IMG/VR virus record: IMGVR_UViG_3300044984_000411
Location: 307-64,306 of that record
Source of the DNA: a virus
Lineage: Duplodnaviria > Caudoviricetes
Reading direction: 5' to 3' (one strand)
DNA length: 64,000 bases
The position numbers were made by a program, and so were the translations under genes. The notes below the pieces were generated by a model. That model did not search any database. It was not told the origin of the DNA and saw only the letters and a list, made by a program, of their open reading frames with translations. Below are positions 18,268 through 64,000 of the stretch, piece after piece. Each line of letters begins with the position of its first letter. Position 1 is the stretch's first letter.

Positions 18268-18286
18268 TGTTTAATTATACCATACC

Positions 18287-18814
18287 CTAGATTTCTCCGC
18301 CATCAATATTTGGTGAAGAATATGTTGTGTCTATTACAGATACATTTGCCACTTCCATAAAAGAATTTACCTCTTTTTCTTGTGTTGCAAGTTGAATAGA
18401 AAAATATCCAGATGTTGCTTTTTGACCAGTACCACCTTCATATGGAATTGTTACAAAATAATTAGTTGCAGAAACTGTTGCAACATAAAAATAATCTGCA
18501 TCATTAAACAATGGGTCTGGATACTCCCATTTAACAAAAATGTCAAATTTTGAGTTTTTCAAAACGTCTCCACCAAGAGCATCCCACTCTAAGTTAATTG
18601 AAAGACTGTCTACCGAGACCGTTGCTTTAGCTGTAGCTGCCCCAGAGTAGTACTCAAAGTTTGACGCTGTGTTTCCATCTAAATCTTTAATGTCTGACCA
18701 GGCAGAAACAGCAGCTCCATCTGGAGACTTTATTCTATATCTAAAATAAAATTTACCATCTTTTTTTGGAAGTGGTAAAAACTCTGGTGGGATAACGACT
18801 TTTTGGATAGCCAC
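18287..18814 (-). CDS. Putative tail protein (FN3-like)
   Basis: FRYRI...SAWS, beta-rich, C-terminal IDGGEI. Confidence 0.55.
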   Translation of the reverse strand: MAIQKVVIPPEFLPLPKKDGKFYFRYRIKSPDGAAVSAWSDIKDLDGNTASNFEYYSGAATAKATVSVDSLSINLEWDALGGDVLKNSKFDIFVKWEYPDPLFNDADYFYVATVSATNYFVTIPYEGGTGQKATSGYFSIQLATQEKEVNSFMEVANVSVIDTTYSSPNIDGGEI

Positions 18815-19923: not shown

Positions 19924-19935
19924 AGTTTTAACCTC

Positions 19936-20451
19936 TTAGTATATTGTATCATCTTTGACTTCACCAAATGATAGAAATTCAATTTCAACTTGCTCTCCAT
20001 TAAATGCATTTGCAACGTGAATTGTTATTGAGTTTGTCGTATTGTCAAAATAAACAGCCTTCCACTTAGAGTCGTCATTTGGGTAAAGCTGTTCTAGCTC
20101 TTCTATTGAAGGAATGTATTCATTAAAATTATAATAGAACAAGTCCAGAAAGTTATCAATTGAGTTTGGATTTTTTGATATTTCTGTTGGACTATAGTCT
20201 AACGCTAGTTCAGACATATTTTTGATTGGAGAGTAATCCTGAACAATACCGTTAATTTGGTCATTTCTAGTCAATGTAATAAGCTCTGTGCCACCAACAT
20301 CTTGAAGCAGGAGGCTTTGAACCTCTACCTCTGATATTTGATATCTGACATAATCTGCTTCCATATCGGTATTAATGCTTGGCACATTTACAGCTGGTTT
20401 AGCTTTGAATGGAACATAGCCTTCATCTGGAGTTGCGTTTATTTTAGCCAT
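19936..20451 (-). CDS. Putative tail protein
   Basis: 171-aa ORF in the tail operon. Confidence 0.55.
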   Translation of the reverse strand: MAKINATPDEGYVPFKAKPAVNVPSINTDMEADYVRYQISEVEVQSLLLQDVGGTELITLTRNDQINGIVQDYSPIKNMSELALDYSPTEISKNPNSIDNFLDLFYYNFNEYIPSIEELEQLYPNDDSKWKAVYFDNTTNSITIHVANAFNGEQVEIEFLSFGEVKDDTIY

Positions 20452-25190: not shown

Positions 25191-25861
25191 TATGCCTCTT
25201 CCAAGGTAACACTAATGTTCCAAAAGTCAAAATTAGTGCCTCCACGCTTTACAACAGAATAACTAAAGTCAGAAATAAACATCTCTACAACTTGGCTATA
25301 TTTTCCAAGGTTTGCATACTTGCCTTGTGCTACTCCTTCAAAATTTGGATATTTGTCGTAAGAAAGATATACCCAAAAAGAACCTTTATTGTTCTCATAC
25401 CAATCTAAAATTTCTGCACCGCCAGCACCGCCATCGGTTGTATATTGATAAAGGTAGTTTCCTGGTAGACTAGTTTTTTCTACACCAGAATATCCAGTAG
25501 TTGTTGGTTTTCCAGTTGTAGTATTAAAGTTTGGGTCATTAGAAAAAGAGCGTGACGGAAGCATGTCCCAAGAAACGGATATTTGTAGTTTGTCCGCAAT
25601 GTGGTATGAACGCATACGACCGTTAACAGTTCTTCTTCTGTTTTCAATTCTCTGTTGCGTAAAGTCAATTGGACCTCTGTTATCGTCTGATAAAACTAAA
25701 AAGTCTCCTGAGCCAGATGCTGCATTTACCTCATTACCTGTTGGGACATAATAGTTTTGTCCGTCATAGGCAGCTAGCGTACCTTTGTTGTCTGCCCAAA
25801 GCATAGCCTGTGGACGAGAATACCTTTTTCTACCTACTAGATAGTCTGCGTTATTTGGCAT
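25190..25861 (-). CDS. Distal tail protein-like
   Basis: Immediately after the tape measure. RRTVNGRMR...WNISVTLEEA. Confidence 0.65.
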   Translation of the reverse strand: MPNNADYLVGRKRYSRPQAMLWADNKGTLAAYDGQNYYVPTGNEVNAASGSGDFLVLSDDNRGPIDFTQQRIENRRRTVNGRMRSYHIADKLQISVSWDMLPSRSFSNDPNFNTTTGKPTTTGYSGVEKTSLPGNYLYQYTTDGGAGGAEILDWYENNKGSFWVYLSYDKYPNFEGVAQGKYANLGKYSQVVEMFISDFSYSVVKRGGTNFDFWNISVTLEEA

Positions 25862-34131: not shown

Positions 34132-34155
34132 TCATCATTACCTCTTTTTTAGTTA

Positions 34156-34473
34156 TTAGCCTCTACCGCCAAGAAACTGGTTGCCCATGGCAGTTCCAGA
34201 TGCCTCTTCAATAATGCGGTATACGGTTGGCAAGTCTAGAAGGTCTTCTAGCTTTGCTGCGTCTTCTGCAAGCTCTGGCTTGTACTGACGCATGGCGATT
34301 CTAACACATTCGATTAGAAGGTCCATTGATTTATCGTTGTCTTCTGCAACTTCTTCGATGCTTGCAAAGGTCTTCATAAACTCACGAAGAATTGAGATTT
34401 TTAGTGGTCGTACTGCAAGAACGGTTCCGTCTGGCAGAGTGATTTCATTTGGTTCGTTAATGGTTGTTGCCAT
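34156..34473 (-). CDS. Tail assembly chaperone (short paralog)
   Basis: Directly upstream of the tape measure and similar to the N-terminal half of 34522-35214. Confidence 0.7.
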   Translation of the reverse strand: MATTINEPNEITLPDGTVLAVRPLKISILREFMKTFASIEEVAEDNDKSMDLLIECVRIAMRQYKPELAEDAAKLEDLLDLPTVYRIIEEASGTAMGNQFLGGRG

Positions 34474-34521
34474 TGTTCCTCCTATAGGTTGATAAATAAA
34501 TTATAACACAAAAGAGGTTTA

Positions 34522-35214
34522 TTAATCCCACTTTTCATAGCCAAGACCCATGCCAATACCAAAGCCAGCCTTTTGTGCATTTTGTCCTTGTAAAGATAGA
34601 ACATCGTCTGGATTATCTGTTGCTCCACCGCTAAACACCTTAGCCTTAATTTTTTCCCATGGGTCTTGTTCTTTTTTACCAGATTGTGCGTCAAGGTCTA
34701 CTCCTTGAATTGCAGCAAAAAACTTTTTTTCATTATAGTCTGCATCTCTTTTTGCATTCAGTGTGCTCATTAGTTCTGGTAGTGATAGAGAACGCTCTAG
34801 TTCTTCGTAGTCTTTCCAAATGCCCAGCAAGAATGCCTCTGACTCTAGTGTAGCCAGGTCCATAGAATCCCATCCAGGTGGATTGTCGGATACCTGTTTT
34901 TGTGGTGTATCTTCAGTTTGCTCTTTGTTTTTTAGCTTAATCCCTGCAGACAGGTCAAGAAGTTCGTACAGGGTGTCCATGTCTAAGCTATCTGCTAGTT
35001 CTTCTGCACTTGTAATTGACGGATAGTATTGCTTCATAGCAATTGCCCCACACTCAAGTAGCATATTTACAGTATCGTCTTCTGAGACAGCATCTTTAAA
35101 GTCGCTAAACACATCCATTAAATCTCTAAGATAAAGTATCTTTAATGGTGTTATGTGTAGTCTTGTTCCGTCTGTGAGTTCTATATACCCAGATTCATAT
35201 ATTTTAGTAGCCAT
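34522..35214 (-). CDS. Tail assembly chaperone (long form)
   Basis: Lies between the major tail and tape measure genes. WKDYEELERSLSLPEL segment. Confidence 0.7.
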   Translation of the reverse strand: MATKIYESGYIELTDGTRLHITPLKILYLRDLMDVFSDFKDAVSEDDTVNMLLECGAIAMKQYYPSITSAEELADSLDMDTLYELLDLSAGIKLKNKEQTEDTPQKQVSDNPPGWDSMDLATLESEAFLLGIWKDYEELERSLSLPELMSTLNAKRDADYNEKKFFAAIQGVDLDAQSGKKEQDPWEKIKAKVFSGGATDNPDDVLSLQGQNAQKAGFGIGMGLGYEKWD

Positions 35215-36045: not shown

Positions 36046-36576
36046 TTAAATTGATTCTTGGTCAACCATATGGTAGTCATACTCAATAATAATCTTGTTA
36101 CCGCCATATGTTCTAGCAGTACCAAAGTCAATGATGTCTCGCACTTCTTCAAGCTGATATACCTTAAAATTGTGGAAGTAGAAATTTGGCTCAATGGTGA
36201 TACCCTCTACGTTAATTGAGCCTTTTGCTTTTTGCCATTTATTTATTTCTTCTGCTGTTTCATCTTCACGGTCCATAAGTCTAAGAATCTTTTCAGTAAT
36301 CTTGACCATGTTTACAACTGAGTTTTCTGCTGTAGCATAAAAGTAATAAACTGCTTGCTCGCACTTAATGTGTGGAAATGGCTTTCTACGCATACGAATA
36401 AGCCTATCGTATGTACACATAACCCCACCTTCTGGAAAACTTGATGTTAGGTTGTCGATGGTTGATGGTGTGCTTGGAAAGAATGGCACTGTGTCAAACC
36501 CTAGAGTCTCTAGCTTTTCTTTTAGGTAGTGGTTAACCCATAGCATTGGCGTGTTTAAGATTGATGTTGTTGTCAT
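36046..36576 (-). CDS. Putative tail terminator/completion protein
   Basis: Position just before the major tail gene. Confidence 0.5.
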   Translation of the reverse strand: MTTTSILNTPMLWVNHYLKEKLETLGFDTVPFFPSTPSTIDNLTSSFPEGGVMCTYDRLIRMRRKPFPHIKCEQAVYYFYATAENSVVNMVKITEKILRLMDREDETAEEINKWQKAKGSINVEGITIEPNFYFHNFKVYQLEEVRDIIDFGTARTYGGNKIIIEYDYHMVDQESI

Positions 36577-37235
36577 TTAACTGCTCCTACTATCCAATTA
36601 TACCCTGCTTTGATTCCTTCTGCACGACCACTACGTTTTTTAAGGTTTCTGTGGAATTCTGCTGGATTTTCTAGGTTAAAGGCAATTCCAGATGAACGCA
36701 AAAATGCTTGAGTAAAGTATTGGTTAAAAAATATGTCTAGAACTTTATTAAACTGACCTTGTACTTGACCGCCAGGATTGTCTACCTTGATTGGTCCTGG
36801 TCTAAAGTATGTTTCTCCATCAACATCAAATACCAAAACATTCGCAGACTTTGGTTTAATTGTAACAGGAACACCACTTTCCATTACTTCTGCCTTGTTG
36901 TAGAATGGTACTGTAGAGCCTCTGCTGACAGACTGAGACTGTTTGAATGAATATGTAAATGCAACCATGCCACCAGCTACGGTATAGTCAATATCGTACA
37001 ATCTTGCGTCTGGACTTCCTGTTCTGTACCACTCGTAAACGTGGTGAAGTCTTTGTGGGTCAAGTCTGGCATTTGTGTCGATAAATTCTTTTGCCATTTC
37101 AACAGTAACTACGCCTAGCTCTTGTAAAAACTTTGGTTTGCCCTTTTTAGCACCTTCAATAAATCCGTCTGAGTACTTTACAACATTTAGTATGTCGTTT
37201 AAAAAATCTTTGTCGTTAAACTTTACAGCTATCAT
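36573..37235 (-). CDS. Putative neck/tail completion protein
   Basis: Position in the module, LHHVYEW motif. Confidence 0.5.
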   Translation of the reverse strand: MIAVKFNDKDFLNDILNVVKYSDGFIEGAKKGKPKFLQELGVVTVEMAKEFIDTNARLDPQRLHHVYEWYRTGSPDARLYDIDYTVAGGMVAFTYSFKQSQSVSRGSTVPFYNKAEVMESGVPVTIKPKSANVLVFDVDGETYFRPGPIKVDNPGGQVQGQFNKVLDIFFNQYFTQAFLRSSGIAFNLENPAEFHRNLKKRSGRAEGIKAGYNWIVGAVK

Positions 37236-43540: not shown

Positions 43541-46500
43541 TTATGCAGGTTCAATGGTTATTTGTGACGACTTTACGTCTGTATAGATTGTATAGTTAAA
43601 GCTATCGACACCAACATATGACTCTGACGCATATCCACCAGCTGAATTTCTTGATGTTCCAGTAAATGTCTTGTAGATTTCTTCTGACGATAGTCCACGA
43701 ATCTCTGTACCAGATGATTGAGATATAATATCCGACCAAACACCTGTTGTGTAGTCGTTCCATGTTTGAAGCGAGTTTGTGTCATAAAGAACATTAATCC
43801 AAATATTTTCTACCAACACAAGACCATGTTCGTCTCCAGACTTTAGCTGTGCATAAACAAAGTTATTCATGAGCATTGGTCCAGAAATATTTATTGTCCC
43901 AGCTTCACTTGTAAAGGCGTAAACTGTTTTAAACTTTATTCCAAGAGTAAACCATTCGTCTAAAGATACTACTGGATACTCTGTCTTTATTCCATTGATA
44001 TAATATTCAACGTCAGTATAATCAGTACCGCTTTCATTCTTGGCAAAGATTCTTGCTCTTGTATTTGCTGTATTTACTGAGTCTATATAGAATCTTATTT
44101 TTGTATCTGGATTATCTGTTATGTTTACTGTTTCAAAAATAAGAACGTCGCTTGTAGAAAATTGTTCAAGATTAAACTTTGCAACCATCTGCAAGAATCC
44201 TATTTCAAAAGTGTCGGAGAGTTCAGTGTTTATATTAATATAGTATCCGTTTGAGGCTGACGGTGTTCCTGTTATTTGCATACCAGAGTTTGACGATAGA
44301 TAATAATATGGCAAAGTAAATTTAGGCAATACTGCTGCAGATACGTTTCCATAAGGAATTAAGTTTGTTACAGTAGACGTTCCAAATTCTGTTGGATTGG
44401 AAGAGTCTGTATTTAGCCCCTGTCCAGTAATTTGCAAATGCCTAATACCAATTGGCTTCATGACTAGGCTATCTGCATTAACTTCAATATGTGCAACTAC
44501 AGCTAGCGTTTCTAGGTCAGCAGTAGTGGGTATATAAATAGCTGTTCCGTCTACCATCTCATATTTTGTATTTGCATATCCAGATGATGATGAGATTACA
44601 TTTGAGCTTGTTACTCTTGAAGATGTGTTGTAAGTCAGTACGTCTGCTTCTGCACCAGATGCAAGTGTTTGGAATGTTAGATAAGTTCTTGCTAAAGATG
44701 ATGATGTGTTGTATTCATTCGAAGAAAATGATATTGGCTTTGGATAATCTACATTAAACTGTAGATAGTCTAGGGCGTATTTTGTTCCAGTTGGGGCTTC
44801 AACATACTTTGCAAAAAATGACAATGGAATAGATTCTTGCCAATACATATTAGTAGCAATGTCCAAAAATATTTTAGAGTCAAACTTGTTTAAAAATAAC
44901 GTGTAGCTTGCTGTGTGAGAATCTAGAGTTGCTGCTGTTCCAGTAAAAAATCCATCGGAATCAAATTCTGCTGACACTTTAGACAAGTTTCTTTTATCCA
45001 TAAATCCAAACTTATAGATTTTTCCAGTAAATGTCGTGTCTGTTGTAAACGCTTCATCACCACCAATATACAAAATTAGATTTTTGTGGTTACCAAAAAA
45101 CTCAGAGAAGTTTGGGTCTACATTATCGATTAGGTCTTGAAATACAACACCTGCTGCAAACTTTGTTCCAATCACATTTCCAGTCGCTGTATACAATGCA
45201 CTACTTACTGTGCCATTGTAGCTAAACTTATAAATAATTTTATCTGTAGTAGACTCCCTTATTGTGTATGCTTCTAGATAGTCTCCATTAATCTTATTAA
45301 ATATTTTAAACAAAATTTGCTTAGTTGTATTGTTTTCTGAACGTGTAGCAACAATATAAATACCCTGAGTTTTATTAATTGTTGGATTTATATTGTCAAA
45401 AAGAATATGGCTTTCTGTGGAATTCCATCCTGCTGTTGGTTGTAGGTCAATATGGTCATATGGTGAATTTTGAGCCAATAGCAAGTCTTCATCTGTAAAC
45501 GTTGCTGATGGAGCCAGAACAATTGTTGGGACAGTATATTTAGGTGACTTTAGAATGTTTGTTTCTGAAATACAGTTGCTTAAAATTCCTTCAGTCCACT
45601 GGTATTTTTGATTGTTTCCGTATGCTCTGTTACTTCCATAGTTTGCAAAAGAATAGTCTGGAAAAATAGAGTCACCGTCATATCCAGATACGAGTTCATC
45701 TTGAAAATGTTTTGTTCCCTGACCATAAACAAATCTTTTTTGTGCCAAAACTTTATCGATAGCATAGGCATAAATTGCAACACAGCTAACTTCTATTCTT
45801 GGAATATCTGTGTAACAGTAAAACCCTATCCAGTCTTGAATATCGCTACTTCCGTCAAAGTATTCTTCTAAGGCAACGTCTTCAATGTCGTAGTTTATTG
45901 CTCCAATAAAATCTCCGTTAATAAACATTTGTGCTCCAGATATTGAAGTAACTACCTGTAGCAACATTGGTCTATCCCACTCTCCAACATAGTGCGACAA
46001 TGTATTTCCAGCAATATTTAAAATTAGATGTGGTCCGTCAGCATAGATTCCATCGTTGCCAACAATTGGTCCAATGATTTTCTTTGCTTCTGATGTACCA
46101 GCTTTTATTCTTAACCATGTTTCAAATGTTCTTGTTTTTGTCTTTTGCGATTCATTTAAAAATCCATTTCCTGGAACTATTAGGGATGGCAGTCCATCGT
46201 TATAAGAAAGAACTGTTGAATTTGAGGAACCATAAACAAGTGGAAAAGAAGAACTTCTTGCTCCAGCAACTGCATCGCTAATAACGTAATATCCAGCATT
46301 TGTTGTAGAAGAATAGGCTGGAGCTTCAACAGCTGTTACGTTAGTTCCTGTTAGTGGAATTGTTGCTGGAATAGTCGAAGAAACTGAACCAAGACTTTCC
46401 ATATTTGCATCTTCTGCCCACTTGCCAACAGATAGTCCATTTATTAAAATAGAAACTGAATCTGAAACTGTTGGAAGATTGTAGGTAAATCTAATTACTA

Positions 46501-46966
46501 TGTTTGCTCCAGTTGGTTGTGCATTAAATGTTGCCGAAGCAAACTCCCAAGAATAAAAATCTGATGTTAAAATTTCGTCTGACCACTGAACTGCTCCAGC
46601 TCCAATCTTATATCCAATTTCAAGTTTTGATATATATGGAGTTGTTTTAAAATAATAAAATCCAATTGTAAAGGTATCTTCACTTGAAGAAAATGTAAAG
46701 TTGCTTGTTGCTGTAAAGCTGCTACTACCAGTACCAACAACTCCAGTCTTAGACACTTCTGTTACAGTTGTTCCAAGTTTATAGTATGGTGGCGTTGTTT
46801 GGTCAAACGGTGCTCCTGCTGCACTGCTTGTGTATGTCCAAGAAACTAGGCTTCTGTTTGTATCTGAAATTAACGACAGATATTTTAGGTCATTGTCTAG
46901 TGTCCATAGAGCGATTGGGTGCTCTGCAAAAATTTTTTCTGCATAAAGATTAGAAGGATTAGCCAT
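43541..46966 (-). CDS. Large virion structural protein (LamG/concanavalin-like domains)
   Basis: AEHPIALWTLD N-terminus, TFETWLR, beta-rich, 1141 aa. Confidence 0.6.
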   Translation of the reverse strand: MANPSNLYAEKIFAEHPIALWTLDNDLKYLSLISDTNRSLVSWTYTSSAAGAPFDQTTPPYYKLGTTVTEVSKTGVVGTGSSSFTATSNFTFSSSEDTFTIGFYYFKTTPYISKLEIGYKIGAGAVQWSDEILTSDFYSWEFASATFNAQPTGANIVIRFTYNLPTVSDSVSILINGLSVGKWAEDANMESLGSVSSTIPATIPLTGTNVTAVEAPAYSSTTNAGYYVISDAVAGARSSSFPLVYGSSNSTVLSYNDGLPSLIVPGNGFLNESQKTKTRTFETWLRIKAGTSEAKKIIGPIVGNDGIYADGPHLILNIAGNTLSHYVGEWDRPMLLQVVTSISGAQMFINGDFIGAINYDIEDVALEEYFDGSSDIQDWIGFYCYTDIPRIEVSCVAIYAYAIDKVLAQKRFVYGQGTKHFQDELVSGYDGDSIFPDYSFANYGSNRAYGNNQKYQWTEGILSNCISETNILKSPKYTVPTIVLAPSATFTDEDLLLAQNSPYDHIDLQPTAGWNSTESHILFDNINPTINKTQGIYIVATRSENNTTKQILFKIFNKINGDYLEAYTIRESTTDKIIYKFSYNGTVSSALYTATGNVIGTKFAAGVVFQDLIDNVDPNFSEFFGNHKNLILYIGGDEAFTTDTTFTGKIYKFGFMDKRNLSKVSAEFDSDGFFTGTAATLDSHTASYTLFLNKFDSKIFLDIATNMYWQESIPLSFFAKYVEAPTGTKYALDYLQFNVDYPKPISFSSNEYNTSSSLARTYLTFQTLASGAEADVLTYNTSSRVTSSNVISSSSGYANTKYEMVDGTAIYIPTTADLETLAVVAHIEVNADSLVMKPIGIRHLQITGQGLNTDSSNPTEFGTSTVTNLIPYGNVSAAVLPKFTLPYYYLSSNSGMQITGTPSASNGYYININTELSDTFEIGFLQMVAKFNLEQFSTSDVLIFETVNITDNPDTKIRFYIDSVNTANTRARIFAKNESGTDYTDVEYYINGIKTEYPVVSLDEWFTLGIKFKTVYAFTSEAGTINISGPMLMNNFVYAQLKSGDEHGLVLVENIWINVLYDTNSLQTWNDYTTGVWSDIISQSSGTEIRGLSSEEIYKTFTGTSRNSAGGYASESYVGVDSFNYTIYTDVKSSQITIEPA

Positions 46967-54990: not shown

Positions 54991-57411
54991 TTATACAGTA
55001 CCGCCATCGATTGATGGCAAAGAAATTGTTTTTGTAGTTGGGTCATATGATAATGGTGGACTAGCCACAAGAATTCCAGACGGTCCTGTTGGACCAGTTG
55101 CTCCAGTAGGTCCTGTTACTGTGCTTGCTGCTCCTGTTGGTCCTGTGGGACCAGTATTACCATTTGGACCTGTGGGTCCAATTGCTCCTGTAGGTCCCAG
55201 CTGGGTGTACATAACCTGTACTGCGGTAAGAATAATTGAAGGTGTTGCTGGAGATGTTGGGGACGTTCTTGCTGGCAAAGACTCTACCCTAAGTTGTGTG
55301 CTTGAGCCAGACCAGTAAACTTGCACTTGCTGTCCTGCTGTTGCAGTTGCAACATAGTTAATTGTTACTATTTGTCGGTTAGGCTCATCTGATGACTTAC
55401 GTGGCTGCATATCTATTTCAGTAGCAGAATCGGGATAGTCGACGTTATTTGTTTTTAGCCAGAAAATTCCTTTTTCAACAGAGTTAGCATAGTTGGTAAG
55501 TTGGATAGAAAATGTAAGGCTATAGGTTCCAGCATAAGCAAAGGTAACTTCGTCACCGTTTTGAATACTCACACCGCTTGATTCGGATGTGGACCCAATT
55601 GCAATAACTTGAGCTACAGAAGTAGATACGAGTGGTTGGTCGGTCATGTCGTAGAACGAACCGTAATAGCCTAGTGTTCCACCTGCCCCAGTAGTTCCTT
55701 GTGGACCTGTTGGTCCAGTTGCACCTGTAGGACCAGTAGGACCAGTAGGTCCTGTGACTGTAGAGGCAGCTCCTGTAGCACCTGTAGGTCCTGTTGCTCC
55801 AGTTGGACCAGTTGGTCCTTGTGAGCCAGTAGAACCTGTAGAGCCAGTAGGTCCAGTTGCACCAATTGAGCCTTGTGGACCTGTAGGTCCTGTTGCTCCA
55901 GTAGCTCCAATAGGTCCTGTGGGACCAGTGGCACCGTCTAATCCGTTAGTTCCATTTGTTCCTGCTGGACCTGTCGGTCCTGTAACAGTTGATGCAGAAC
56001 CTTGTGGACCTGTTGGACCCAATGGACCTGTAGGTCCTGTGGGACCAGTAGGTCCTGTGGGACCAGTAGGACCTGTAACAGTTGACGCTGCTCCTGTGGG
56101 TCCTGTTGGACCTGTTGGACCTATAGAGCCTTGTGAGCCTGTGCTACCTGTAGGACCTGTTGGTCCTTGTGCTCCTGTAGTTCCTGTGCTACCAGTTGGT
56201 CCTGTCGCACCTTGAGACCCTGTAGGTCCAGTTATGGTTGAGGCAGCTCCTTGTGGTCCTGTAGCTCCTGTAGGACCTGTAGGTCCCTGAATTCCAGTAG
56301 GTCCAGTAACAGTTGACGCTGCTCCCTGTGGACCAGTTGGACCAGTTGGACCTAGCGGTCCTGTTGGACCAGTAACTGTAGATGCAGCACCTGTAGGACC
56401 AGTGAGACCGATGTCTCCAGTTCTAGCAAAGTCAAGAACGATGCCAGAGCCAGGGGTAAGTCCAGAAATACTTCCAGAAACATAGTTAACAGGAATCTTA
56501 TAATACCCACTATCGGCAATTACAGTTCCGCTAATTGCAAATACTAAAATCTGTCCAGAAGAACCAGAGGCTGATTGAAAAATTAAGTTTCCTTTGATTG
56601 CTGAAGAAGAATCATCAAATGTGTCGTACCATCCAGTCATAGATACGCTATTTGCATTTGTATTGTCAATAAAAATTTGAGAGATAGATGCTGGAACTGA
56701 ATTGTTAAATCTTACATACCCTGTTCCTGGGTCAGCATCTACTGTGTTATTTGAATAAAAATATGGGACACCTGCACGTTTACCTTCTGGTCCAGTGCTT
56801 CCTGTTGGACCCTGAAATCCTTCTGGTCCTGTTGGTCCTTGTGGACCTGTACTGCCAGTAGGTCCTGTTACTGTGCTTGCTGCTCCTTGAGGTCCAGTAG
56901 AACCAGTTGGACCCAGACTTCCTGTAGGACCTAGCGGTCCTGTAGGACCTTGGATGCCTTGTGGACCTGTAGGTCCTGTAGGACCAGTAGGTCCTGTCAC
57001 AGTAGAAGCAGGACCAGTTGAGCCTGTAGGTCCTGTAGGACCAGCCACACCTGTAGGACCAAGGTTTCCCTGTGGACCTGTTGAGCCTGTGGCTCCAGTT
57101 GGACCTATGGGTCCTTGGCTTCCTGTTGGTCCTGTGACTGTGGACGCAGGTCCTGTTGAACCAGTTGGTCCAGTTGGTCCTTGCGGTCCAGTTGGTCCAC
57201 TAAGAACCATACCAGGTGCTGGAATGATTTTGATTGTGTCAGATGTTTGGGTTTGATTGATTATCTTAATGGTGGGGGCATCAGGAGCAATTGCTTTGAC
57301 AACCACCTCTATATTATTTACAGGAACTATCTTAACAACCTCTGCAGGGTTTGTAGTTGCAATTACTTCTACAGTACCTGCTGGGCTACTGGTTACTTTT
57401 ACTGTTGACAT
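54991..57411 (-). CDS. Collagen-like (GPT repeat) fibre protein
   Basis: Long G-P-T triplet runs interrupted by two globular domains, C-terminal IDGGTV. Confidence 0.9.
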
Positions 57412-57906: not shown

Positions 57907-58080
57907 TGTGGATAACCCTGTGTATAAAATCGTTATCTAAAAGTTATCATAAAATATGCTAAAAAGGGCTTGACAAACGTTCGGCGTATGGTACTATATA
58001 TATTAATAGATAGATAGATGATATATATAATATATAAATATATTAAACTATAAGATATATATTAAATATATAATAATAAT
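57907..58080. other. Putative replication origin (DnaA boxes plus AT-rich unwinding element)
   Basis: TGTGGATAA at 57907, TGTGTATAA at 57919, GTTAT-N6-GTTAT at 57932, near-pure A/T tract 57995-58083, close to the strand switch. Confidence 0.55.
57970..57997 (+). promoter_or_regulatory. Sigma70-type promoter pointing into the AT-rich tract
   Basis: TTGACA-N16-TACTAT with a TG extension. Confidence 0.55.
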
Positions 58081-58352: not shown

Positions 58353-58492
58353 ACTCTCAATTATATATGATTATTTAGTTATCTGAATATAAAAACGGCG
58401 GTAAAAAGCTCGGCGTAAGTTTTTCGGCGTGAAAATAGAGTAACCAAACACCACCAGGGCTTAACAGCCCCAAATGTGTTATAATATTAAGT

Positions 58493-58699
58493 ATGAAAGA
58501 TAACGGCGATGTCGAATTTTTAGACCTTTTTGACCCTAACCAACAAAAAGCAGACAGAGAACTAGTAGAGTCTCGTTTAGCAATTTGTAATACGTGTCCC
58601 TGGTTTGCCAAAAATTTGAAAAGATGTCGCAAATGTGGTTGTTTTATGAGATTGAAGACTACCCTTGTTCAAGCTAAGTGTCCTGTAGGACATTGGTAA
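58493..58699 (+). CDS. Cys-rich Zn-binding protein (DUF6171-like)
   Basis: RLAICNTC...CRKCGCFM..KT.L....CPVGHW, leaderless start. Confidence 0.7.
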   Translation: MKDNGDVEFLDLFDPNQQKADRELVESRLAICNTCPWFAKNLKRCRKCGCFMRLKTTLVQAKCPVGHW

Positions 58700-58748
58700 A
58701 TCAAGACAGGCTGTGCCTGTTGTGTACCCCAAACATTTTAGGAAACAT

Positions 58749-58862
58749 ATGAAGAAAAAGATTGACTGGGCTGAAGTCTTTGCACTTATCGTATCAGGAA
58801 TAGGTTTTATTTGTCTATATGCAGCTATTGCTATATGGCTTGGAGCAGAAGTAGTTCTGTAA
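58749..58862 (+). CDS. Small membrane peptide (37 aa)
   Basis: MKKKIDWAEVFALIVSGIGFICLYAAIAIWLGAEVVL with an AGGA RBS. Confidence 0.5.
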   Translation: MKKKIDWAEVFALIVSGIGFICLYAAIAIWLGAEVVL

Positions 58863-59088
58863 TACCCCCAAATCTGAAAATCTGAAAAATTTTATATTTG
58901 GCAAAATCTGAATATTTTGTAGAGATGAATGATACGAACCTACACTCATACGTATCCCAATTTTAGTGAGCACACATCCCCCTACGTACCTTTATAACGA
59001 ATTGGTAACATTGCAAAAATGTTTGTTGAAATGAACCAAAATGTCTCCCCTATCGTATAGACTTTAGATAACAAAGAAGGAGCAACAA

Positions 59089-59313
59089 ATGACCAGCATC
59101 GAGATTCTAATCGCAAGTTACTCAGTAGTATTCGTAGGCTTCGCTCTACTGTATGCAATCGCTTTGCCTATCTCTCTAGCACTTGAGTCAGTCGGCAAGC
59201 GTATCGCTAACAAGCGTTCAGTTGCATACCGCCTAGCAAACCAGTGTAAAGGTATCACCAAAAAGGGTGAGCAATGCCTAAACTGGTTAGACTGCCCTCA
59301 CCACAGCAACTAA
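59089..59313 (+). CDS. Membrane protein with C-terminal Cys/His Zn motif
   Basis: N-terminal TM, CKGITKKGEQC...CPHH, AAGGAG RBS. Confidence 0.7.
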   Translation: MTSIEILIASYSVVFVGFALLYAIALPISLALESVGKRIANKRSVAYRLANQCKGITKKGEQCLNWLDCPHHSN

Positions 59314-59441
59314 GCGACACGCCCAATGAATGGACTTGACAAATCCAGGATTTTGGGGGCACCCATTTTGTTACCAAACTGTTACATAAGATATACGTCA
59401 AAACTTCCCTAAATGTCTGTCCTATCCTGTAGACTATAGCC

Positions 59442-59510
59442 ATGAACGAAAACGAAGACTACTCAGCAGAAAACCCTTGTGACGACATCGATTGCCTATG
59501 GTGTAACTAA
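59442..59510 (+). CDS. Leaderless 22-aa acidic Cys peptide
   Basis: MNENEDYSAENPCDDIDCLWCN, ATG 6 nt after TAGACT. Confidence 0.5.
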   Translation: MNENEDYSAENPCDDIDCLWCN

Positions 59511-59620
59511 TGCGTAACCTAATGGATGACTTGACCATTGTGATAATGGTTACCCTCGCTAGTGTGCTAGTGCTAGGCAGCGTTAGCCTACTACTATGGG
59601 CAGCAGGGCTTATCCCCTAG
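59510..59620 (+). CDS. Small TM peptide (36 aa)
   Basis: MRNLMDDLTIVIMVTLASVLVLGSVSLLLWAAGLIP, TAATG coupling to the previous ORF. Confidence 0.55.
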   Translation: MRNLMDDLTIVIMVTLASVLVLGSVSLLLWAAGLIP

Positions 59621-59805
59621 GGCTACCAGGGCGACACGCCCGACAGCGTGGGGGTGCCCCAAAATCTGGGCTTTTGTCAATACGACACGCCGTTAAGTTT
59701 GATAACAATTTTCCCCCAAATCGTTACATTTATTTGGCGTGTTTGGTAATAAATGTCTGTGCTATGGTATAGACTGATAACAACAAGGAAGCAAAGGACA
59801 GAAAA

Positions 59806-59976
59806 ATGACAGTAGACCTAGAGTATGTAGCAAACCTAGTAGCACAGTTGAACGCAGACAAGATTGAGCGTGATAACATAGCACTTGCCGATGCAATGAC
59901 TCCTGAGCAATACCCAGACTGCAACCAGTGTGGAGCGGTTATCGATGACTCATTCGGTTGCTACTTTTGTGACTAA
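59806..59976 (+). CDS. Small Zn-finger protein (56 aa)
   Basis: CNQC...CYFC, AAGGA RBS, own promoter at 59751. Confidence 0.65.
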   Translation: MTVDLEYVANLVAQLNADKIERDNIALADAMTPEQYPDCNQCGAVIDDSFGCYFCD

Positions 59977-60023
59977 ATGTCCGTGGCTAATGCTAAACTA
60001 AAAACATCAAGAAAGGATAACTA

Positions 60024-60161
60024 ATGTTTGTTTGTGTATTTTGTGAGAGAACCTTCAACCTCGCTCCACACTCTTGCCCTAACTGCAATGACTACAAAGG
60101 GCTAATGACTATTGCTGATGCGGTTGCTGAGTATGACTGGTTAGACTACTTAGTAGCCTAG
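60024..60161 (+). CDS. Small Zn-ribbon protein (45 aa)
   Basis: CVFC...CPNCNDYKG, AAAGGA RBS. Confidence 0.65.
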   Translation: MFVCVFCERTFNLAPHSCPNCNDYKGLMTIADAVAEYDWLDYLVA

Positions 60162-60314
60162 CCTATCCGCTACCCTGGCGACACGCCCGACAGCGTGGGG
60201 GCACCGCCTGTGGATAACTCTGTGGATAACTGCGTTATGTAACTGTTATAAAAACCCCCAACTTTTTGGCGTGTCGTGTAGATAAATGTCTGGCGTGTGT
60301 GATAGGTTATAGGT

Positions 60315-60428
60315 ATGGAAAGAAAAGCAGAAATGGGTTGGGCAGGGCTAGCCCTTGCTCTATCTATCGTTATCGTAATCGCTACCGCTGTAGTCTCAGG
60401 CTTGGCTTGGGCTAGCGGTCTAATCTAA
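60315..60428 (+). CDS. Leaderless small TM peptide (37 aa)
   Basis: MERKAEMGWAGLALALSIVIVIATAVVSGLAWASGLI. Confidence 0.55.
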   Translation: MERKAEMGWAGLALALSIVIVIATAVVSGLAWASGLI

Positions 60429-60437
60429 GGAAACAAA

Positions 60438-60581
60438 ATGAACGCTGTAATCAACGCAACCCTAACCCTTTCTCTAGCGAAAGAAAACCTAGAGAAACTA
60501 ATCGCTATGGGTCTTGATACTGATGAAGACTATGACCAAGTGTATTGGGCAGAGCAAGAGCTAAAGCGTCTCTCTCGCTAA
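60438..60581 (+). CDS. Small helical protein (47 aa), paralog of 61876-62019
   Basis: MNAVINATLTLSLAKENLEKLIAMGLDTDEDYDQVYWAEQELKRLSR. Confidence 0.7.
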   Translation: MNAVINATLTLSLAKENLEKLIAMGLDTDEDYDQVYWAEQELKRLSR

Positions 60582-60622
60582 TACCCCACCAGGGCGACAC
60601 GCCCGACAGCGTGGGGTGCCCT

Positions 60623-60638
60623 TCGAACAGAATTTCGA
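60623..60638. promoter_or_regulatory. Actinobacterial-type SOS (LexA) box, 1 mismatch
   Basis: TCGAAC-AGAA-TTTCGA versus consensus TCGAAC-N4-GTTCGA. Confidence 0.45.
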
Positions 60639-60716
60639 ATGTAACACTTACGTAACGAATTAAATTTCTCCCAAATTTTTTGCCAAAATGTCTGTGCAAA
60701 CTGATAGTCTATACCT

Positions 60717-61073
60717 ATGAAAACCTGCAAAGAATGCCTAGCCACCAAGCCCCTCGCTGACTTCTCTAAGGCTAGTGGTGGCAACTACTACCGAACCGAG
60801 TGCAAGGCTTGCTCTAACGCTATGACCAAAGAGCGTAATGCTCTACGCAAGCAGTATGGTATGCCTAACGCTGGCTACGCTTGCCCTATCTGCCAGAGAG
60901 TAGAGAACGAGATTGTTGGTGAGGGCGGTAACGCTGGTGCTTGGGTTCTTGACCACGACCACGCTTCTGGTGAGTTTCGTGGTTGGCTATGCCACAAGTG
61001 CAATCGTGGTCTGGGAGCATTTGAAGACCAACTGCCACGCCTATTGCGAGCAATCGAATACTTATCAAAGTAG
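60717..61073 (+). CDS. Recombination endonuclease VII-family (His-Me) nuclease
   Basis: CKEC/CKAC N-terminus, CPIC...LDHDH..GEFRGWLCHKCNRGLG. Leaderless start. Confidence 0.88.
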   Translation: MKTCKECLATKPLADFSKASGGNYYRTECKACSNAMTKERNALRKQYGMPNAGYACPICQRVENEIVGEGGNAGAWVLDHDHASGEFRGWLCHKCNRGLGAFEDQLPRLLRAIEYLSK

Positions 61074-61203
61074 CGACACGCCGATGCCAGAGCTTGACAA
61101 ACCTGGCAAAATCGGGGCACCCCAAAAATAACGAAATGGTAACGATTTACGTAACACGATTATTTTCTCCCAAAATGTCTGACCTGTCTGATAGACTGCA
61201 GGT

Positions 61204-61329
61204 ATGCAAATCGAAATCATCACCCCAGAGGGTCGCTCCGCTATCATCCCTAACACCGAAGCCAACTTGCGTTGGGCAAAGAAACTTTTTGCTCAGGGCT
61301 TTCTTCAGTCTTGGGAAATCCTAAAGTAA
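61204..61329 (+). CDS. Leaderless small protein (41 aa)
   Basis: MQIEIITPEGRSAIIPNTEANLRWAKKLFAQGFLQSWEILK. Confidence 0.6.
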   Translation: MQIEIITPEGRSAIIPNTEANLRWAKKLFAQGFLQSWEILK

Positions 61330-61376
61330 AATGTCCGCCCCCTATGCTAAACTCAAACCAATCGAAAGGTAACAAA

Positions 61377-61535
61377 ATGGAAACAGCACTAGCAGACTTG
61401 ACCCTAAAGCAAGCAAAACTAAAACTCAACTCACTCGTTCGTGAAGCCGAGAACCTTGACTACCTCTCACACGCAGAACTAGATTTTATGCTAGCCCTCG
61501 TTCGCCACATCCAGAAACTAGGGGGAACGGTCTAA
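61377..61535 (+). CDS. Small helical protein (52 aa)
   Basis: METALADLTLKQ... with a GAAAGGT RBS. Confidence 0.65.
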   Translation: METALADLTLKQAKLKLNSLVREAENLDYLSHAELDFMLALVRHIQKLGGTV

Positions 61536-61604
61536 ATGTCTGTGGTCATTGGTAGCCTAATCCTAATCGCTCTTATCGCTCTCTTCAATCAGTAAAGGAA
61601 AAAA

Positions 61605-61727
61605 ATGTCACCTACACTTTCTTGGATTCTATTCCTCTCAATGGGCTGGGCTACTTATGCTTGGTATAAGTCAATGGTCATCAAGTCACTAGAGGAGGAG
61701 TTGGAACGGAATAAGCCACCGTTCTAG
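61605..61727 (+). CDS. Small TM protein ending in PPF (40 aa)
   Basis: MSPTLSWILFLSMGWATYAWYKSMVIKSLEEELERNKPPF with an AAAGGA RBS. Confidence 0.6.
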   Translation: MSPTLSWILFLSMGWATYAWYKSMVIKSLEEELERNKPPF

Positions 61728-61875
61728 CTCTACCCTGGCGACACGCCCGACAGCGTGGGGTGCCCCCGATAACGTTTTGGTAACGGTTTAAGTAACAAGC
61801 CAAAAAACCCCCTGTTTTGGTAAATAAATGTCCGTGGTTCGTGTTACCTTATAGGTAGACAGAAAGAAGGAATAA

Positions 61876-62019
61876 ATGAAGAAAGCACTTGACGCAAAAC
61901 TAGCCCTAGACCTAGCCATTGAGAACCTAGGCAAACTAATCGCCCTAGGCATTGACACGCCTGAAGACTATGACGAGGTTCACTGGCTTCAGTTTCAGTT
62001 TGACAAACTAAATAAATAA
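61876..62019 (+). CDS. Small helical protein (47 aa), paralog of 60438-60581
   Basis: MKKALDAKLALDLAIENLGKLIALGIDTPEDYDEVHWLQFQFDKLNK. Confidence 0.7.
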   Translation: MKKALDAKLALDLAIENLGKLIALGIDTPEDYDEVHWLQFQFDKLNK

Positions 62020-62071
62020 ATGTCTGTGGCATCCGCTAAACTGTAAGTAACCAAAAGAAATGAGAAATGAA

Positions 62072-62227
62072 ATGACCGAAACCCCAACTCTAACCCAACT
62101 CGTTGAATACGCAATGGAACGCTATGGCTTCAACATCGATACCGCTTACATTTATGTTGCTGGTTCGTTGTTTGCCGTAGCGGACGATGAGGGTAAGCAG
62201 TTGGTTGCCAGAGCAATGGGCAAATAA
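62072..62227 (+). CDS. Small protein (51 aa)
   Basis: MTETPTLTQLVEYAMERYGFNIDTAYIYVAGSLFAV..., own promoter at 62018. Confidence 0.6.
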   Translation: MTETPTLTQLVEYAMERYGFNIDTAYIYVAGSLFAVADDEGKQLVARAMGK

Positions 62228-62334
62228 GTTTTAGGGGTAGCAAGAGCCTAGCAAATAATCCGTAATGGTGAGCCTAGCAAATAAATGTCTGCCCCTAATG
62301 GTAACCTGTAACTACAAACAAGAAAGGGCAACTA

Positions 62335-62502
62335 ATGCCAAAACCAAGAATGACCAAAAGCGAAAAGGTTTTTATGGATGAACTTCACCCTATAATCTGG
62401 CACAAGGGAGCAACTACCCTTGCCGAAAGCGAAACCTATAAGCAACTGCCTGAAGCGGTTAGACAGGCTTACCTTCAGTTGCTAATCACCAAGACACGAT
62501 AG
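62335..62502 (+). CDS. Small protein (55 aa)
   Basis: MPKPRMTKSEKVFMDELHPIIWHKG... with a GAAAGGG RBS. Confidence 0.6.
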   Translation: MPKPRMTKSEKVFMDELHPIIWHKGATTLAESETYKQLPEAVRQAYLQLLITKTR

Positions 62503-62656
62503 TTATCCACAGGGTAGCGAAAGTTATCCACAGGGGGCACCCCAGGTAACGATTTGGTAACAGTTTACGTTACCGATTAAAAATGTCCCGAAATGTCTCC
62601 CAAAATAATAATAAATGTCTGAGGTGGCTGTTAGACTTACTTCGTAAGTTGATTGA

Positions 62657-62902
62657 TTGGAGTTCCCCTTGACCCTTAGCCCAAACCTGCTCTTTGTGAG
62701 CCAGACCATCCAGACCTACCCCACCTTTGCCCAAGCCTACGCAGACGGCAAGAACATCAAAAACTTTGGCTTATGCGAACACTTTCAGGTTGCTCGCCGT
62801 TTTTCTAACTCTGGCATTGTCTATCGCCTGACCCTGCTGAACAAGAATGAAGCAACCTACAACACCCTTGACCTATCACCAAACTACCCAAACGCTAACT
62901 AA
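62657..62902 (+). CDS. Hypothetical protein
   Basis: Track ORF. TTG start at 62657, or at 62669 after GGAG. Confidence 0.55.
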   Translation: MEFPLTLSPNLLFVSQTIQTYPTFAQAYADGKNIKNFGLCEHFQVARRFSNSGIVYRLTLLNKNEATYNTLDLSPNYPNAN

Positions 62903-62911
62903 GGAGAACCT

Positions 62912-63049
62912 ATGCCAAGCATCAAACTAACCAAAGACGAGAGCCGTATTCACGAGTGCCAACTCTGTGGCGGTTCTGCCAAGTTTTATCTTGTTCGCAA
63001 GATTGCTCCCTCAATGTTTTTGTGTGGACTTTGCGTTCGCCCTGCCTAG
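62912..63049 (+). CDS. Small Zn-finger protein (45 aa)
   Basis: CQLC...CGLC, AAGGAG RBS. Confidence 0.65.
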   Translation: MPSIKLTKDESRIHECQLCGGSAKFYLVRKIAPSMFLCGLCVRPA

Positions 63050-63176
63050 CAGGTAGCGACACGCCAGGGGGGGCACCCCGATTCGTTACCAAAACGTTAT
63101 TAAATAGGTTTAAGACTATTCCCCAAAATGTCTGTGGGTCTTGTTATACTTGGGGTATTCACGAAAGGACATCTCT

Positions 63177-63335
63177 ATGGACACCTCTAACCTTTACTAC
63201 GGCGACGACTTCGGCTACTTTGAGGAGGAAGAACTCACTCCAGAGGAACGCAAAGCCGAAGACAAGGCTTGGATGCAACAGCAGTTGCAAGAAGCCTACG
63301 CAGAGTTCCTAGACGCTCCTAACTGCTTCGACTGA
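63177..63335 (+). CDS. Small acidic protein (52 aa)
   Basis: MDTSNLYYGDDFGYFEEEELTPEE... with a GAAAGGA RBS. Confidence 0.6.
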   Translation: MDTSNLYYGDDFGYFEEEELTPEERKAEDKAWMQQQLQEAYAEFLDAPNCFD

Positions 63336-63455
63336 GGCAGGGAGCTGGGGGCACCCCGAATAACGGTTTGATAACACTTTACGTAGTGTATTAAAAAGCA
63401 CCCGAATAAATGTCTGTGGCTAATGCTAAAATGTAACTACAACGAAAGGATAACT

Positions 63456-63629
63456 ATGCGAAACACAATGAACATTTATGTAGTCGAAATGGACAACGGC
63501 TCTACCCTTGAGATTGAGGCTCCACTAGAGAACGAGGTTCAACTAGATTGGCTCATTGACGCATACTACAAAGGTCGTATCGCTCGCTTTTGGGTAAATG
63601 GCGTTGAGTGGCAAGAGCCTACAGAATAA
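63456..63629 (+). CDS. Small acidic protein (57 aa)
   Basis: MRNTMNIYVVEMDNG... with a GAAAGGA RBS. Confidence 0.6.
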   Translation: MRNTMNIYVVEMDNGSTLEIEAPLENEVQLDWLIDAYYKGRIARFWVNGVEWQEPTE

Positions 63630-63678
63630 ATGTCTGTAGGTATTGGTAAACTGTAATCACGATGAAAGGTAAAAACTA

Positions 63679-63843
63679 ATGGAACCGCTATTTAGAACCA
63701 GTGAACTAATCAAAAACCTAATGGCTAACAGGGACTTCAGCAACAGCGAAGCCTATGCCTATGCGTTTGGCTATGCTTGGGCTATGCTAACAGACGCAGA
63801 CAGACTAAAACTAATCGAAGTATCAAAAAGGGAGCAAAACTAA
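63679..63843 (+). CDS. Small protein (54 aa)
   Basis: MEPLFRTSELIKNLM...AYAYAFGYAWAML... with a GAAAGGT RBS. Confidence 0.6.
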   Translation: MEPLFRTSELIKNLMANRDFSNSEAYAYAFGYAWAMLTDADRLKLIEVSKREQN

Positions 63844-64000
63844 TGATGACTCGCAAAGACTATGTAGTTACCGCAGAAATCCTGCGTGGACACCTAGACA
63901 ACATTGACGAAACAACTTTCGACAGCCTAGTGGAAAGTTTTGCGGTTATGTTTCGTGAAGACAATGACCGCTTTCTAACTGAAAAGTTTGTAGACGCTTG
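63843..64000 (+). CDS. Small phage protein, MTRKDY family (partial)
   Basis: MMTRKDYVVTAEIL...FREDNDRF..EKFVDA, runs off the window end. Confidence 0.6.
   Translation, partial: MMTRKDYVVTAEILRGHLDNIDETTFDSLVESFAVMFREDNDRFLTEKFVDA

Follow-up and report, generated by a model that had tools for sequence, protein, structure and literature searches.

The window, as we call the whole stretch analysed here, comprises 64,000 nucleotides of viral DNA, bases 307–64306 of the 64,306-base IMG/VR virus contig IMGVR_UViG_3300044984_000411, which is rated linear and about 60% complete. From position 1 to about 58350 all its genes lie on the minus strand; near the right end the plus strand carries an array of micro-genes, the subject of this report. 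An original prediction had described 58990–64000 as a cassette-like array, the units of which are parted by a conserved junction with the core GGGG(CA/TG)CCC, and had proposed that the units form an integron-like or recombination-shuffled bank of putative early host-takeover or anti-defence genes. The cassette architecture is real. What is new is that the core is uniform per genome and is swapped as a set between near-identical phages. Position 64000, given originally as the end of the array, is where the contig stops; since the contig is linear and incomplete, the array continues past it.

Nine GGGG(CA/TG)CC cores, seven copies of GCGACACGCC and 18 copies of AAATGTCYS are found in the 64-kb window, all of them within 59039–63636 and far above chance. 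The strict pattern GGGGYRCCC gives 14 strand-matches, equal to eight sites (0.37 expected; none of 100 shuffles reaches 14), and the looser GGGG(CA/TG)CC adds 60198, bringing the sites to nine: 59356, 59651, 60198, 60613, 61114, 61757, 62534, 63070 and 63348 (six CA, three TG). The core positions first reported, in both orientations, were reproduced within 1 nt, as were the unit size of about 280–780 bp (the cores are spaced 278–777 nt apart) and the 24-bp block shared by four units, GGCGACACGCCCGACAGCGTGGGG, which is identical at 59630, 60177, 60593 and 61737. All copies of GCGACACGCC (0.05 expected) and of AAATGTCYS (2.59 expected) are on the plus strand.

Each of the nine junctions is a composite of a left arm, a G/C core of 9–13 nt, a right arm and the next promoter. 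The cores lie 13–43 nt past a stop codon and 47–100 nt ahead of the next AAATGTC box. The left arm is a GCGACACGCC block, a TTGACA arm or two TTATCCACA boxes, and the right arm is made of TAAC, GTAAC or TTACG boxes in either orientation, or of an inverted TTGACA or double TTATCCACA arm, each of which then lies on the opposite side of a core from its direct form (inverted pairs I2, I4 and I5). From the TTGACA arm to the second half of the core the distance is a constant 17 nt in several lineages. Within the window itself, the 24-nt block has four different right flanks and the TTGACA arm has two.

The units had been said to run from an AAATGTC promoter. TAnnnT follows exactly 12 nt past AAATGTC at 16 of the 19 array sites, and among the relatives 270 of 322 distinct instances have it at just this spacing, versus 4 at ±1 nt; for 16 sites the claim stands, but the other three lack a TAnnnT at that distance. 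The promoter-like consensus, aaaTAAATGTCtG.gg....tg.TA.acT, would combine an extended −10 (TGnTAnnnT) with an AAATGTC box at about −31 to −25. Sixteen such sites serve about 21 micro-ORFs (ORF, open reading frame), one or two ORFs of 19–118 aa standing behind each. In four ORFs (59443, 60315, 60717 and 61204) the ATG comes 6 nt past the −10, and it looks as if their mRNAs would be leaderless. The internal promoters differ from these leaderless-like ones in having an AAGGA or GAAAGG behind them that resembles a ribosome-binding site (RBS).

Window and G002, the closest relative with an array (see below), differ in 11 ORFs by 36/25/86 exchanges at codon positions 1/2/3, from which it follows that the micro-ORFs are real genes under purifying selection. 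The four micro-ORFs of 61204–61727, too, depart from G002 chiefly in the third position of codons. Ten ORFs were scanned against Pfam and PHROG; nine had no family, the exception being the 118-aa ORF of the Endonuclease VII (EndoVII) family. Two 47-aa ORFs in different units, 60438–60581 and 61876–62019, are paralogues with the common motif ENL.KLIA.G.DT.EDYD.V.W; the relative G001 has one copy of this family, near the start of its array. Three contigs of the RNA-library run X24, from which only contigs were used, match 61439–61597, 62098–62342 and 63748–63910; neither transcription nor RNA ends are shown thereby.

Table 1. Features of the array and their positions in the window (D, repeat family; I, inverted pair).
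Feature	Positions	Strand	Basis or remarks
TAAC-box pair (TAACGAATTGGTAACA) before the first array promoter, without preceding core	58995–59010	+	D11
Promoter-like site 1: AAATGTC, 12 nt, TAGACT	59039–59063	+	motif scan
Promoter-like sites 2–16, same geometry	59411, 59751, 59975, 60284, 60686, 61173, 61329, 61534, 61826, 62018, 62283, 62613, 63126, 63408, 63628	+	
ORF, 74 aa, hydrophobic N-terminus, unit 1	59089–59313	+	no family; homologues in L154, L181, L170
Junction 1: GCGACACGCC immediately past stop, TTGACA arm 59336–59354, core GGGGGCACCC 59355–59364	59314–59364	+	D12, I2
Inverted TAAC-box pair, right arm of junction 1	59369–59385	+	I17, I24, I25
Overlapping micro-ORF pair: 59443–59511 (22 aa, leaderless-like), 59510–59620 (36 aa, membrane-like)	59443–59620	+	94% nt identity to G002
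Junction 2: 24-nt block, core GGGGGTGCCCC 59650–59660, inverted TTGACA arm 59661–59680	59630–59680	+	D10, I2
ORFs 59806–59976 (56 aa), 60024–60161 (45 aa, CxxC..CxxC, zinc-ribbon-like); internal promoter 59975	59806–60161	+	
Junction 3: block, core GGGGGCACC 60197–60205, two inverted TTATCCACA boxes 60209–60229	60177–60231	+	I4, I5
ORFs 60315–60428 (37 aa, membrane-like, leaderless-like), 60438–60581 (47 aa)	60315–60581	+	
Junction 4: block and core GGGGTGCCC, right arm TTCGAACAGAATTTCGAA	60593–60621	+	
Endonuclease VII-family (HNH-like) gene, 118 aa	60717–61073	+	Pfam PF02945 2.1e-16; phrog_2633 9.9e-27
Junction 5: GCGACACGCC, TTGACA arm 61094–61113, core GGGGCACCCC 61114–61123, TAAC/GTAAC boxes 61127–61160	61073–61160	+	D7, D11, D12
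Four micro-ORFs 61204–61329, 61377–61535, 61536–61595, 61605–61727; internal promoters 61329, 61534	61204–61727	+	
Junction 6: block, core GGGGTGCCCCC 61757–61767, TAAC boxes	61737–61797	+	
ORFs 61876–62019 (47 aa), 62072–62227 (51 aa), 62335–62502 (55 aa); promoters 62018, 62283	61876–62502	+	
Junction 7: two TTATCCACA boxes 62503–62532, core GGGGGCACCCC 62533–62543, TAAC boxes 62546–62576	62502–62576	+	
ORFs 62657–62902 (81 aa), 62912–63049 (45 aa, second CxxC..CxxC protein)	62657–63049	+	
Junction 8: GCGACACGCC, core GGGGGGGCACCCC 63067–63079, inverted TAAC boxes 63084–63100	63056–63100	+	I10: 17 nt, 100% complementary to 61769–61785
ORF, 52 aa, acidic	63177–63335	+	
Junction 9: core GGGGGCACCCC 63347–63357, TAAC boxes	63347–63390	+	D7
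ORFs 63456–63629, 63679–63843, 63843–64000 (cut at contig end); promoter 63628	63456–64000	+	

A search of IMG/VR with the junction pattern yielded G001 (33 kb). With the protein adjoining the array as anchor, 209 related IMG/VR stretches were confirmed and 80 retrieved, every relative being a metagenome assembly. G002 (92,924 b, rated complete, 127-b end overlap) has an early region 11–14 kb long; on the plus strand it spans about 14.5 kb, with 28 AAATGTC sites. The exact 23-nt block is in none of the IMG/VR stretches; a 22-nt form is in three, two of them within G002's contig, and in 88 stretches of metagenomes, which makes the shuffling directly countable at population scale. Seventeen lake-water runs contain half or more of the words sampled from the stretch, five possible source samples having been left out; the 17 runs may all come from one campaign. 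The 5-kb array had no megablast match among 50,697 phage records.

The proteins of the replication and head modules of window and G002 are 97–100% identical, those of the tail module 30–66%; the tail module, 17800–35214, looks like a swapped host-range module. In two places with host-recognition-like proteins the window is closer to G001, which has the same core type, than to G002, namely 36573–37235 (67% vs 50%) and 43541–46966 (41% vs 34%).

Where the window has GGGG(CA/TG)CCCC (type 1), G002 has GGG(G)TCGGGC (type 2). All nine cores of the window are of type 1, and so are the nine of G001 and the ten of L104; G002 has 15 cores of type 2 and no other (GGGTCGGGC, all sites inside the array, 12 forward and three reverse), L170 has 11 and L140 nine. 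L172 carries six cores of type 3 (GGGGCTAGCCCC), and L136 seven of type 4 (GGGGTCGGC) together with one of type 1. Type 5 is GGGCGCGGC, and more distant relatives have further G/C cores. The junction formed by block, core and CTGTGGATAAC occurs with five cores between unchanged flanks. The core type is uniform within a genome, exists in at least five forms and changes independently of the flanking genes. Five contigs of mixed type, each with one switch point along it, may be recombinants or chimeras.

When window and G002 are aligned over 62332–64000, the identity is 100% in the left arm, 55% in the core, 73% in the right arm, 98% in the promoter region and 93–97% in the ORFs. The tree of a 524-nt gene block requires at least two origins of type 1, the type-1 window and L188 nesting among type-2 contigs. 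Most gene families are split evenly over types 1 and 2 (e.g., 13:10, 12:11 and 8:8), and against this even sharing the cores form islands of divergence. A GTCGG(G) behind the block is its pairing partner in most relatives (CCCGAC-AGCGTGG-GTCGGG). The type-1 core of the window breaks this pairing; the window core therefore looks derived. Among distinct junctions with the asymmetric cores (types 2, 4 and 5), 57 are forward and 14 reverse, and the cores of types 1 and 3 are nearly palindromic. That a 10-nt core should be swapped set-wise on near-identical backbones was unexpected.

Among the array families compared, no gene family tracks the core type cleanly. Incongruent similarity pointed to no factor either, all window genes common to G001 being closer to G002 except 60438–60581, which is confused by its paralogue, and the two host-recognition-like ORFs. 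The zinc-ribbon-like ORF 60024–60161 is 82–100% identical in nine type-1 contigs and 45–48% in all three type-3 contigs; it is missing from all type-2 contigs, the complete G002 included, and from G001 and L182, both of type 1. It is a weak lead to a putative factor linked to the core type.

Relatives were compared for gain, loss and reordering of units, and all three were seen. Most array genes are common to window and G002 (93–100% protein identity), the unit order being C-D-E in the window versus E-C-D in G002, and each of the two holds cassettes that the other lacks. The endpoints of the differences are at cores (59652, 61759), at the stop codon adjoining GCGACACGCC (59314), at a promoter or ATG (59438/59442, 60026, 60723/61162) and at AAATAA and CTAATG overlaps (62019/62221, 62337). 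The EndoVII cassette is flanked by the cores 60613 and 61114 and by the promoters 60686 and 61173, and relatives without it are joined at one pair or the other: in L104 the sequence passes within the core from the left flank of core 60613 to the right flank of core 61114, and in G002, L166 and L119 promoter 60686 is joined to promoter 61173. Apart from the window, L182 alone among the typed contigs has a homologue of the EndoVII gene (10191–10544, 93% protein identity). As L182 is a close relative of G001 and the backbone of the window is G002-like, the cassette has moved between two backbones. Contigs from lake metagenomes showed three joints from promoter to promoter (59033>59410, 59033>59749 and 60696>61187) and one from core to core region (59359>59673); joints with short sides (58936>60232, 60014>63263, 60231>63409 and 60278>62340) were left out because they may come from repeats. 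None of the joints listed for these contigs was of the circle type that an excised mini-circle would give.

The flanks assort around the core, as had been predicted. In 175 cores from 38 contigs, left and right flank families form eight four-combination squares at the core, versus 0–1 at eight shifted controls; at promoters there are none, nor are there any at three shifted promoter controls. The gene block 61204–61727, left flank of the 61757-type junction, is followed in the relatives by at least five right arms and two core types. Five of the nine window cores are homology breakpoints relative to contigs of the same core type. Exchange at the core, the other half of this prediction, describes part of the events: several indels end exactly in cores (L104; 59359>59673), but promoter boxes, together with RBS/start or stop overlaps, have no fewer endpoints.

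In integrons the attC sites are imperfect inverted repeats of about 57–141 nt with conserved core and inverse core, and the cassettes are mostly promoterless and driven by a common Pc promoter. The array is like an integron in being a one-way series of small cassettes parted by a recurring site, with gain, loss and reordering; the core-ended indels and the assorting flanks would be expected if a site-specific recombinase crossed over in an attC/attI-like core, and the type-2 block and core do form an inverted pair (GCCCGAC..GTCGGGC). This attC-type pair is limited to the block-type junction of type-2 genomes, and the cores, 9–13 nt long, have no consistent imperfect palindrome and no attC architecture. 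No tyrosine recombinase (PF00589; all 14 control genomes matched), serine recombinase (PF00239) or rve transposase (PF00665) was found in G000, G001 and the complete G002. Every cassette appears to have its own promoter-like site, and many endpoints are at promoters and start or stop codons. The site is, moreover, uniform within a genome and not cassette-specific: homologous cassettes carry different cores in different genomes, which crossover at a cassette-borne site does not predict. The integron-like bank was not borne out, and a recombinase acting at the core is very unlikely. The phage RecA, put forward at the time as the agent, does have a gene, at 8948–9958.

We consider it fairly probable that the array is the first 5 kb of a highly variable early region of an uncultured lake siphovirus, built of self-contained expression cassettes on one strand, which are shuffled in the manner of promoter-early stem-loop (PeSL) cassettes and in which the core is kept uniform. 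As with PeSL cassettes, genes would be carried along with their expression signals when regulatory repeats at scattered sites recombine. The phage's own RecA probably takes part, plus short-patch gene conversion in co-infection, and a dedicated site-specific recombinase would have no share in the shuffling. The core would be held uniform by conversion or by selection.

Several points weigh against this explanation. Of 56 breakpoint clusters five are at cores, which make up 3.6% of positions, a modest excess, and 30% of the alignment ends fall inside ORFs, mostly from divergence. With only about 7–10 nt of identity, a core-to-core event would offer RecA little to work on. Promoters, leaderless starts and unit ends are read from the letters, and scans for simple consensus sigma-70 promoters and terminators were not above shuffles (12 vs 9.9 and 8 vs 5.3). 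No trans factor for the core emerged from the comparisons made. RNA folding of the nine window junctions gave z values of −0.43, −0.78, 0.05, −2.88, −1.75, 0.46, −2.24, −0.30 and 0.35; only two are below −2, and the hairpins are inconsistent. For 145 distinct junctions the median z is −0.96, with 18% below −2 (about 2% expected). The junctions have some excess of RNA structure and no general hairpin. Finally, repeats in metagenome assemblies could give chimeric joins, yet the forms recur in separate contigs and runs.

Taken to the extreme, the last point would make the variable orders and the mixed core types chimeras which the assembler produced at short repeats. All relatives are short-read assemblies, many of the contigs here are only 1–3 kb long, the window's own contig stops inside the array, and there is the single switch point in each mixed-type contig. 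But the repeats are 10–45 nt, below read length and the usual assembly k-mers, the promoter-joined form recurs in G002, L166, L119 and a contig of run X12, and the modular flank combinations are visible within the window itself. An artefact is hardly credible.

Our best guess for the function of the core is that a type-specific factor would recognise it as double-stranded DNA and mark where early units end, the main alternative being a polyG/polyC attenuator hairpin. We tentatively propose that the core may be a specificity determinant read by a fast-evolving phage or host factor, with one core type per lineage at every early-unit boundary; genes would flow freely, and the cores would be kept matched by selection or by nuclease-driven conversion. 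With the same reserve one can imagine a type-specific phage or host protein that binds the core and marks or blocks the ends of early units like a stoperator, the types being compatibility or immunity types under selection. Such a binder would account for uniform cores per genome and at least five types on otherwise constant flanks, for a type replaced on a 97–100% identical backbone at odds with the gene tree, and for cores left as islands of divergence by even gene sharing. Asymmetric cores in both orientations fit a double-strand site better than an RNA signal, and the window resembles G001 over G002 only in host-recognition-like proteins. But no candidate factor was found, the ten early ORFs of G002 that were scanned having no DNA-binding family; the zinc-ribbon ORF, limited to type-1 and type-3 contigs, is missing from the type-1 G001 and L182; and the distance from core to promoter varies from 47 to 100 nt. 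Because an integrase was not found, a classical immunity repressor is unlikely. If the proposal is true, an integrase-less phage would have a compatibility or immunity system of a new kind, in which the same sites double as joints for cassette exchange.

It is somewhat doubtful that the core is instead merely the G-tract/C-tract stem of a terminator or attenuator hairpin of the PeSL kind, for which any G/C sequence would serve and which would be uniform by neutral gene conversion. The cores of types 1 and 3 can be written GGGG-N2-4-CCCC, the type-2 block pairs with its core, many junctions read ACCCC-GAAA-GGGGT, and the share of junction windows with z < −2 exceeds expectation; the four identical 24-nt blocks of the window show that copies are homogenised. 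However, no significant fold is predicted at seven of the nine window junctions, the type-1 mini-hairpin has only 3–4 base pairs, the type-1 core of the window abolishes the 7-bp pairing that the block makes with a type-2 core, and a pairing partner is missing from junctions with a TTGACA arm. Neutral conversion, moreover, leaves unexplained why the divergence peaks in the core while the arms are at 100%.

The uniformity could also be due to a nuclease, EndoVII/HNH (60717–61073) or another of the phage, which in co-infection cuts cores of foreign type that are then repaired from the genome of the cutter, as in marker exclusion by homing endonucleases. In its favour, the window, a type-2 G002 backbone with type-1 cores, has replaced patches that are short, about 10 to 65 nt, and its EndoVII cassette sits between two cores and matches at 93% that of L182, a type-1 phage of the other backbone. 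But only these two typed contigs have the EndoVII gene; it is missing at the locus in the type-1 contigs L104, L119, L174 and L188, and from G001 as well. We regard this mechanism as unlikely.

Shuffling of the PeSL kind in the array would mean that the principle of regulatory repeats as joints for small early genes, known from T4-type myoviruses, also holds for an abundant group of lake siphoviruses. The core swap provides a clean test, neutral conversion versus selection for a matching factor, of why short intergenic repeats are uniform in phages. In the micro-ORFs there is a reservoir of conserved early proteins without assigned function, on self-contained expression cassettes.

TTATCCACA, which we take to be a consensus DnaA box, has six copies in the window versus 0.67 expected (57907–57915 on the minus strand, 47103, 60209, 60221, 62503 and 62524). 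The copy at 57907 is directly upstream of an extended −10 (TGTGATATAAT) that points leftward to the structural genes, an arrangement kept in L019, L020, L087 and L127. The reverse of the post-stop motif (GGCGTGTCG) is found 2–3 nt upstream of a promoter with TTGACA or TTGACT, 17–18 nt and TATAAT or TATACT in two G002-specific cassettes (array-copy positions 3596–3640 and 3840–3880), where the promoter is of canonical form; a window position for the motif is 60265–60273. The post-stop motif thus occurs in two orientations and two contexts.

The minus-strand genes include those for the large terminase, a DnaE-type polymerase, DnaB helicase, primase, RecA, ribonucleotide reductase, portal, protease, the major capsid protein and a 2756-aa tape measure protein (PF10145). 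To judge from its tape measure protein and DnaE-type polymerase, the phage is a siphovirus. The closest matches of the polymerase are Streptomyces phages (56% identity), and G002 encodes at C1:77527–77700 on the plus strand a WhiB-family protein (PF02467, 44.9 bits, exceeding the cut-off), a family which among 14 control genomes matched Corynebacterium alone. On these two grounds the host is probably an actinobacterium and the phage a probable actinophage. The WhiB gene of G002 falls in a part of the genome that is missing from the contig of the window.

The plus-strand region begins upstream of the interval originally given, with a DUF6171 ORF (58493–58699; PF19668, 6.7e-9), which is preceded by TGTGTTATAAT at 58476–58490 and followed by a 49-aa membrane-like ORF (58713–58862). 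Adjoining the array on the minus strand is an 806-aa ORF (54991–57411) with long collagen-like GPTGPTG repeats, in the place of which G001 has other genes. The idea that a 1141-aa or the 2756-aa ORF could be a virion RNA polymerase using the cores as promoters was dropped, since the 2756-aa ORF is the tape measure and the 1141-aa ORF has no match in Pfam, PHROG or PDB; the ESM-Atlas clusters nearest to the latter are lectin-like, which is a lead only. An Rfam search with E up to 0.1 gave no matches, and a tRNA search no genes.

In the Bacillus phage SPO1 the host-takeover module sits in the terminal redundancy and packs numerous small early genes, whose many promoters and terminators stand close together. 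The halovirus HF2 has, like the array, intergenic repeats that bear promoters (PMC8707807, used here in part). Neither has any sequence relation to the array. We know of no report of a type-specific core or of cassette shuffling in SPO1 or HF2.

PeSLs are composites of a stem-loop and an early promoter in hyperplastic ORFan regions of T4-type myoviruses (Arbiol et al., 2010, PMC2839356; Comeau et al., 2014, PMC4122927; both drawn on in part). In the portions of the first account used here they form dense intergenic composites of stop codon, G/C-tract element, promoter, RBS and start where small early ORFan genes cluster; when close relatives differ by an indel or a replacement, its ends fall within the motifs, and the genes travel with their own expression signals and without a dedicated recombinase (PMC2839356). 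At the level of sequence, with putative promoters, this has its counterpart in the window: the motifs are confined to the array, nine of ten ORFs have no family and the content varies; endpoints lie in motifs, as shown by the promoter-promoter and core-core joints and by the five of nine cores that are breakpoints. The phage is not of the T4 superfamily; tape measure PF10145 and DnaE-type polymerase mark the genome as that of a siphovirus, and the region would be PeSL-like in its working but in another lineage. Here we have a siphovirus, probably an actinophage, instead of a T4-like myovirus, an extended −10 with an AAATGTC box instead of a sigma-70 −35/−10 consensus, operator-like boxes of 47–100 nt between G/C element and promoter, and a stem-loop that is predicted at a minority of junctions only. 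The core is specific for the genome type and replaced as a set, a feature that is absent from the portions of the PeSL accounts on which we draw (PMC2839356, PMC4122927).

The stoperators of Cluster A mycobacteriophages (Mavrich and Hatfull, 2019, PMC6550527; PMC9283540; both drawn on in part) are spread genome-wide, whereas the putative sites here are limited to the early array. Transcription does not seem to fix the orientation of the latter strictly (12:3 in G002), no integrase was found, and no immunity repressor turned up when ten G002 early ORFs were scanned for DNA-binding families, which was not a full repressor search. What the two systems share is a short site that recurs many times in the short gaps between genes of an actinophage (a probable one here), and whose sequence differs set-wise between related phages.

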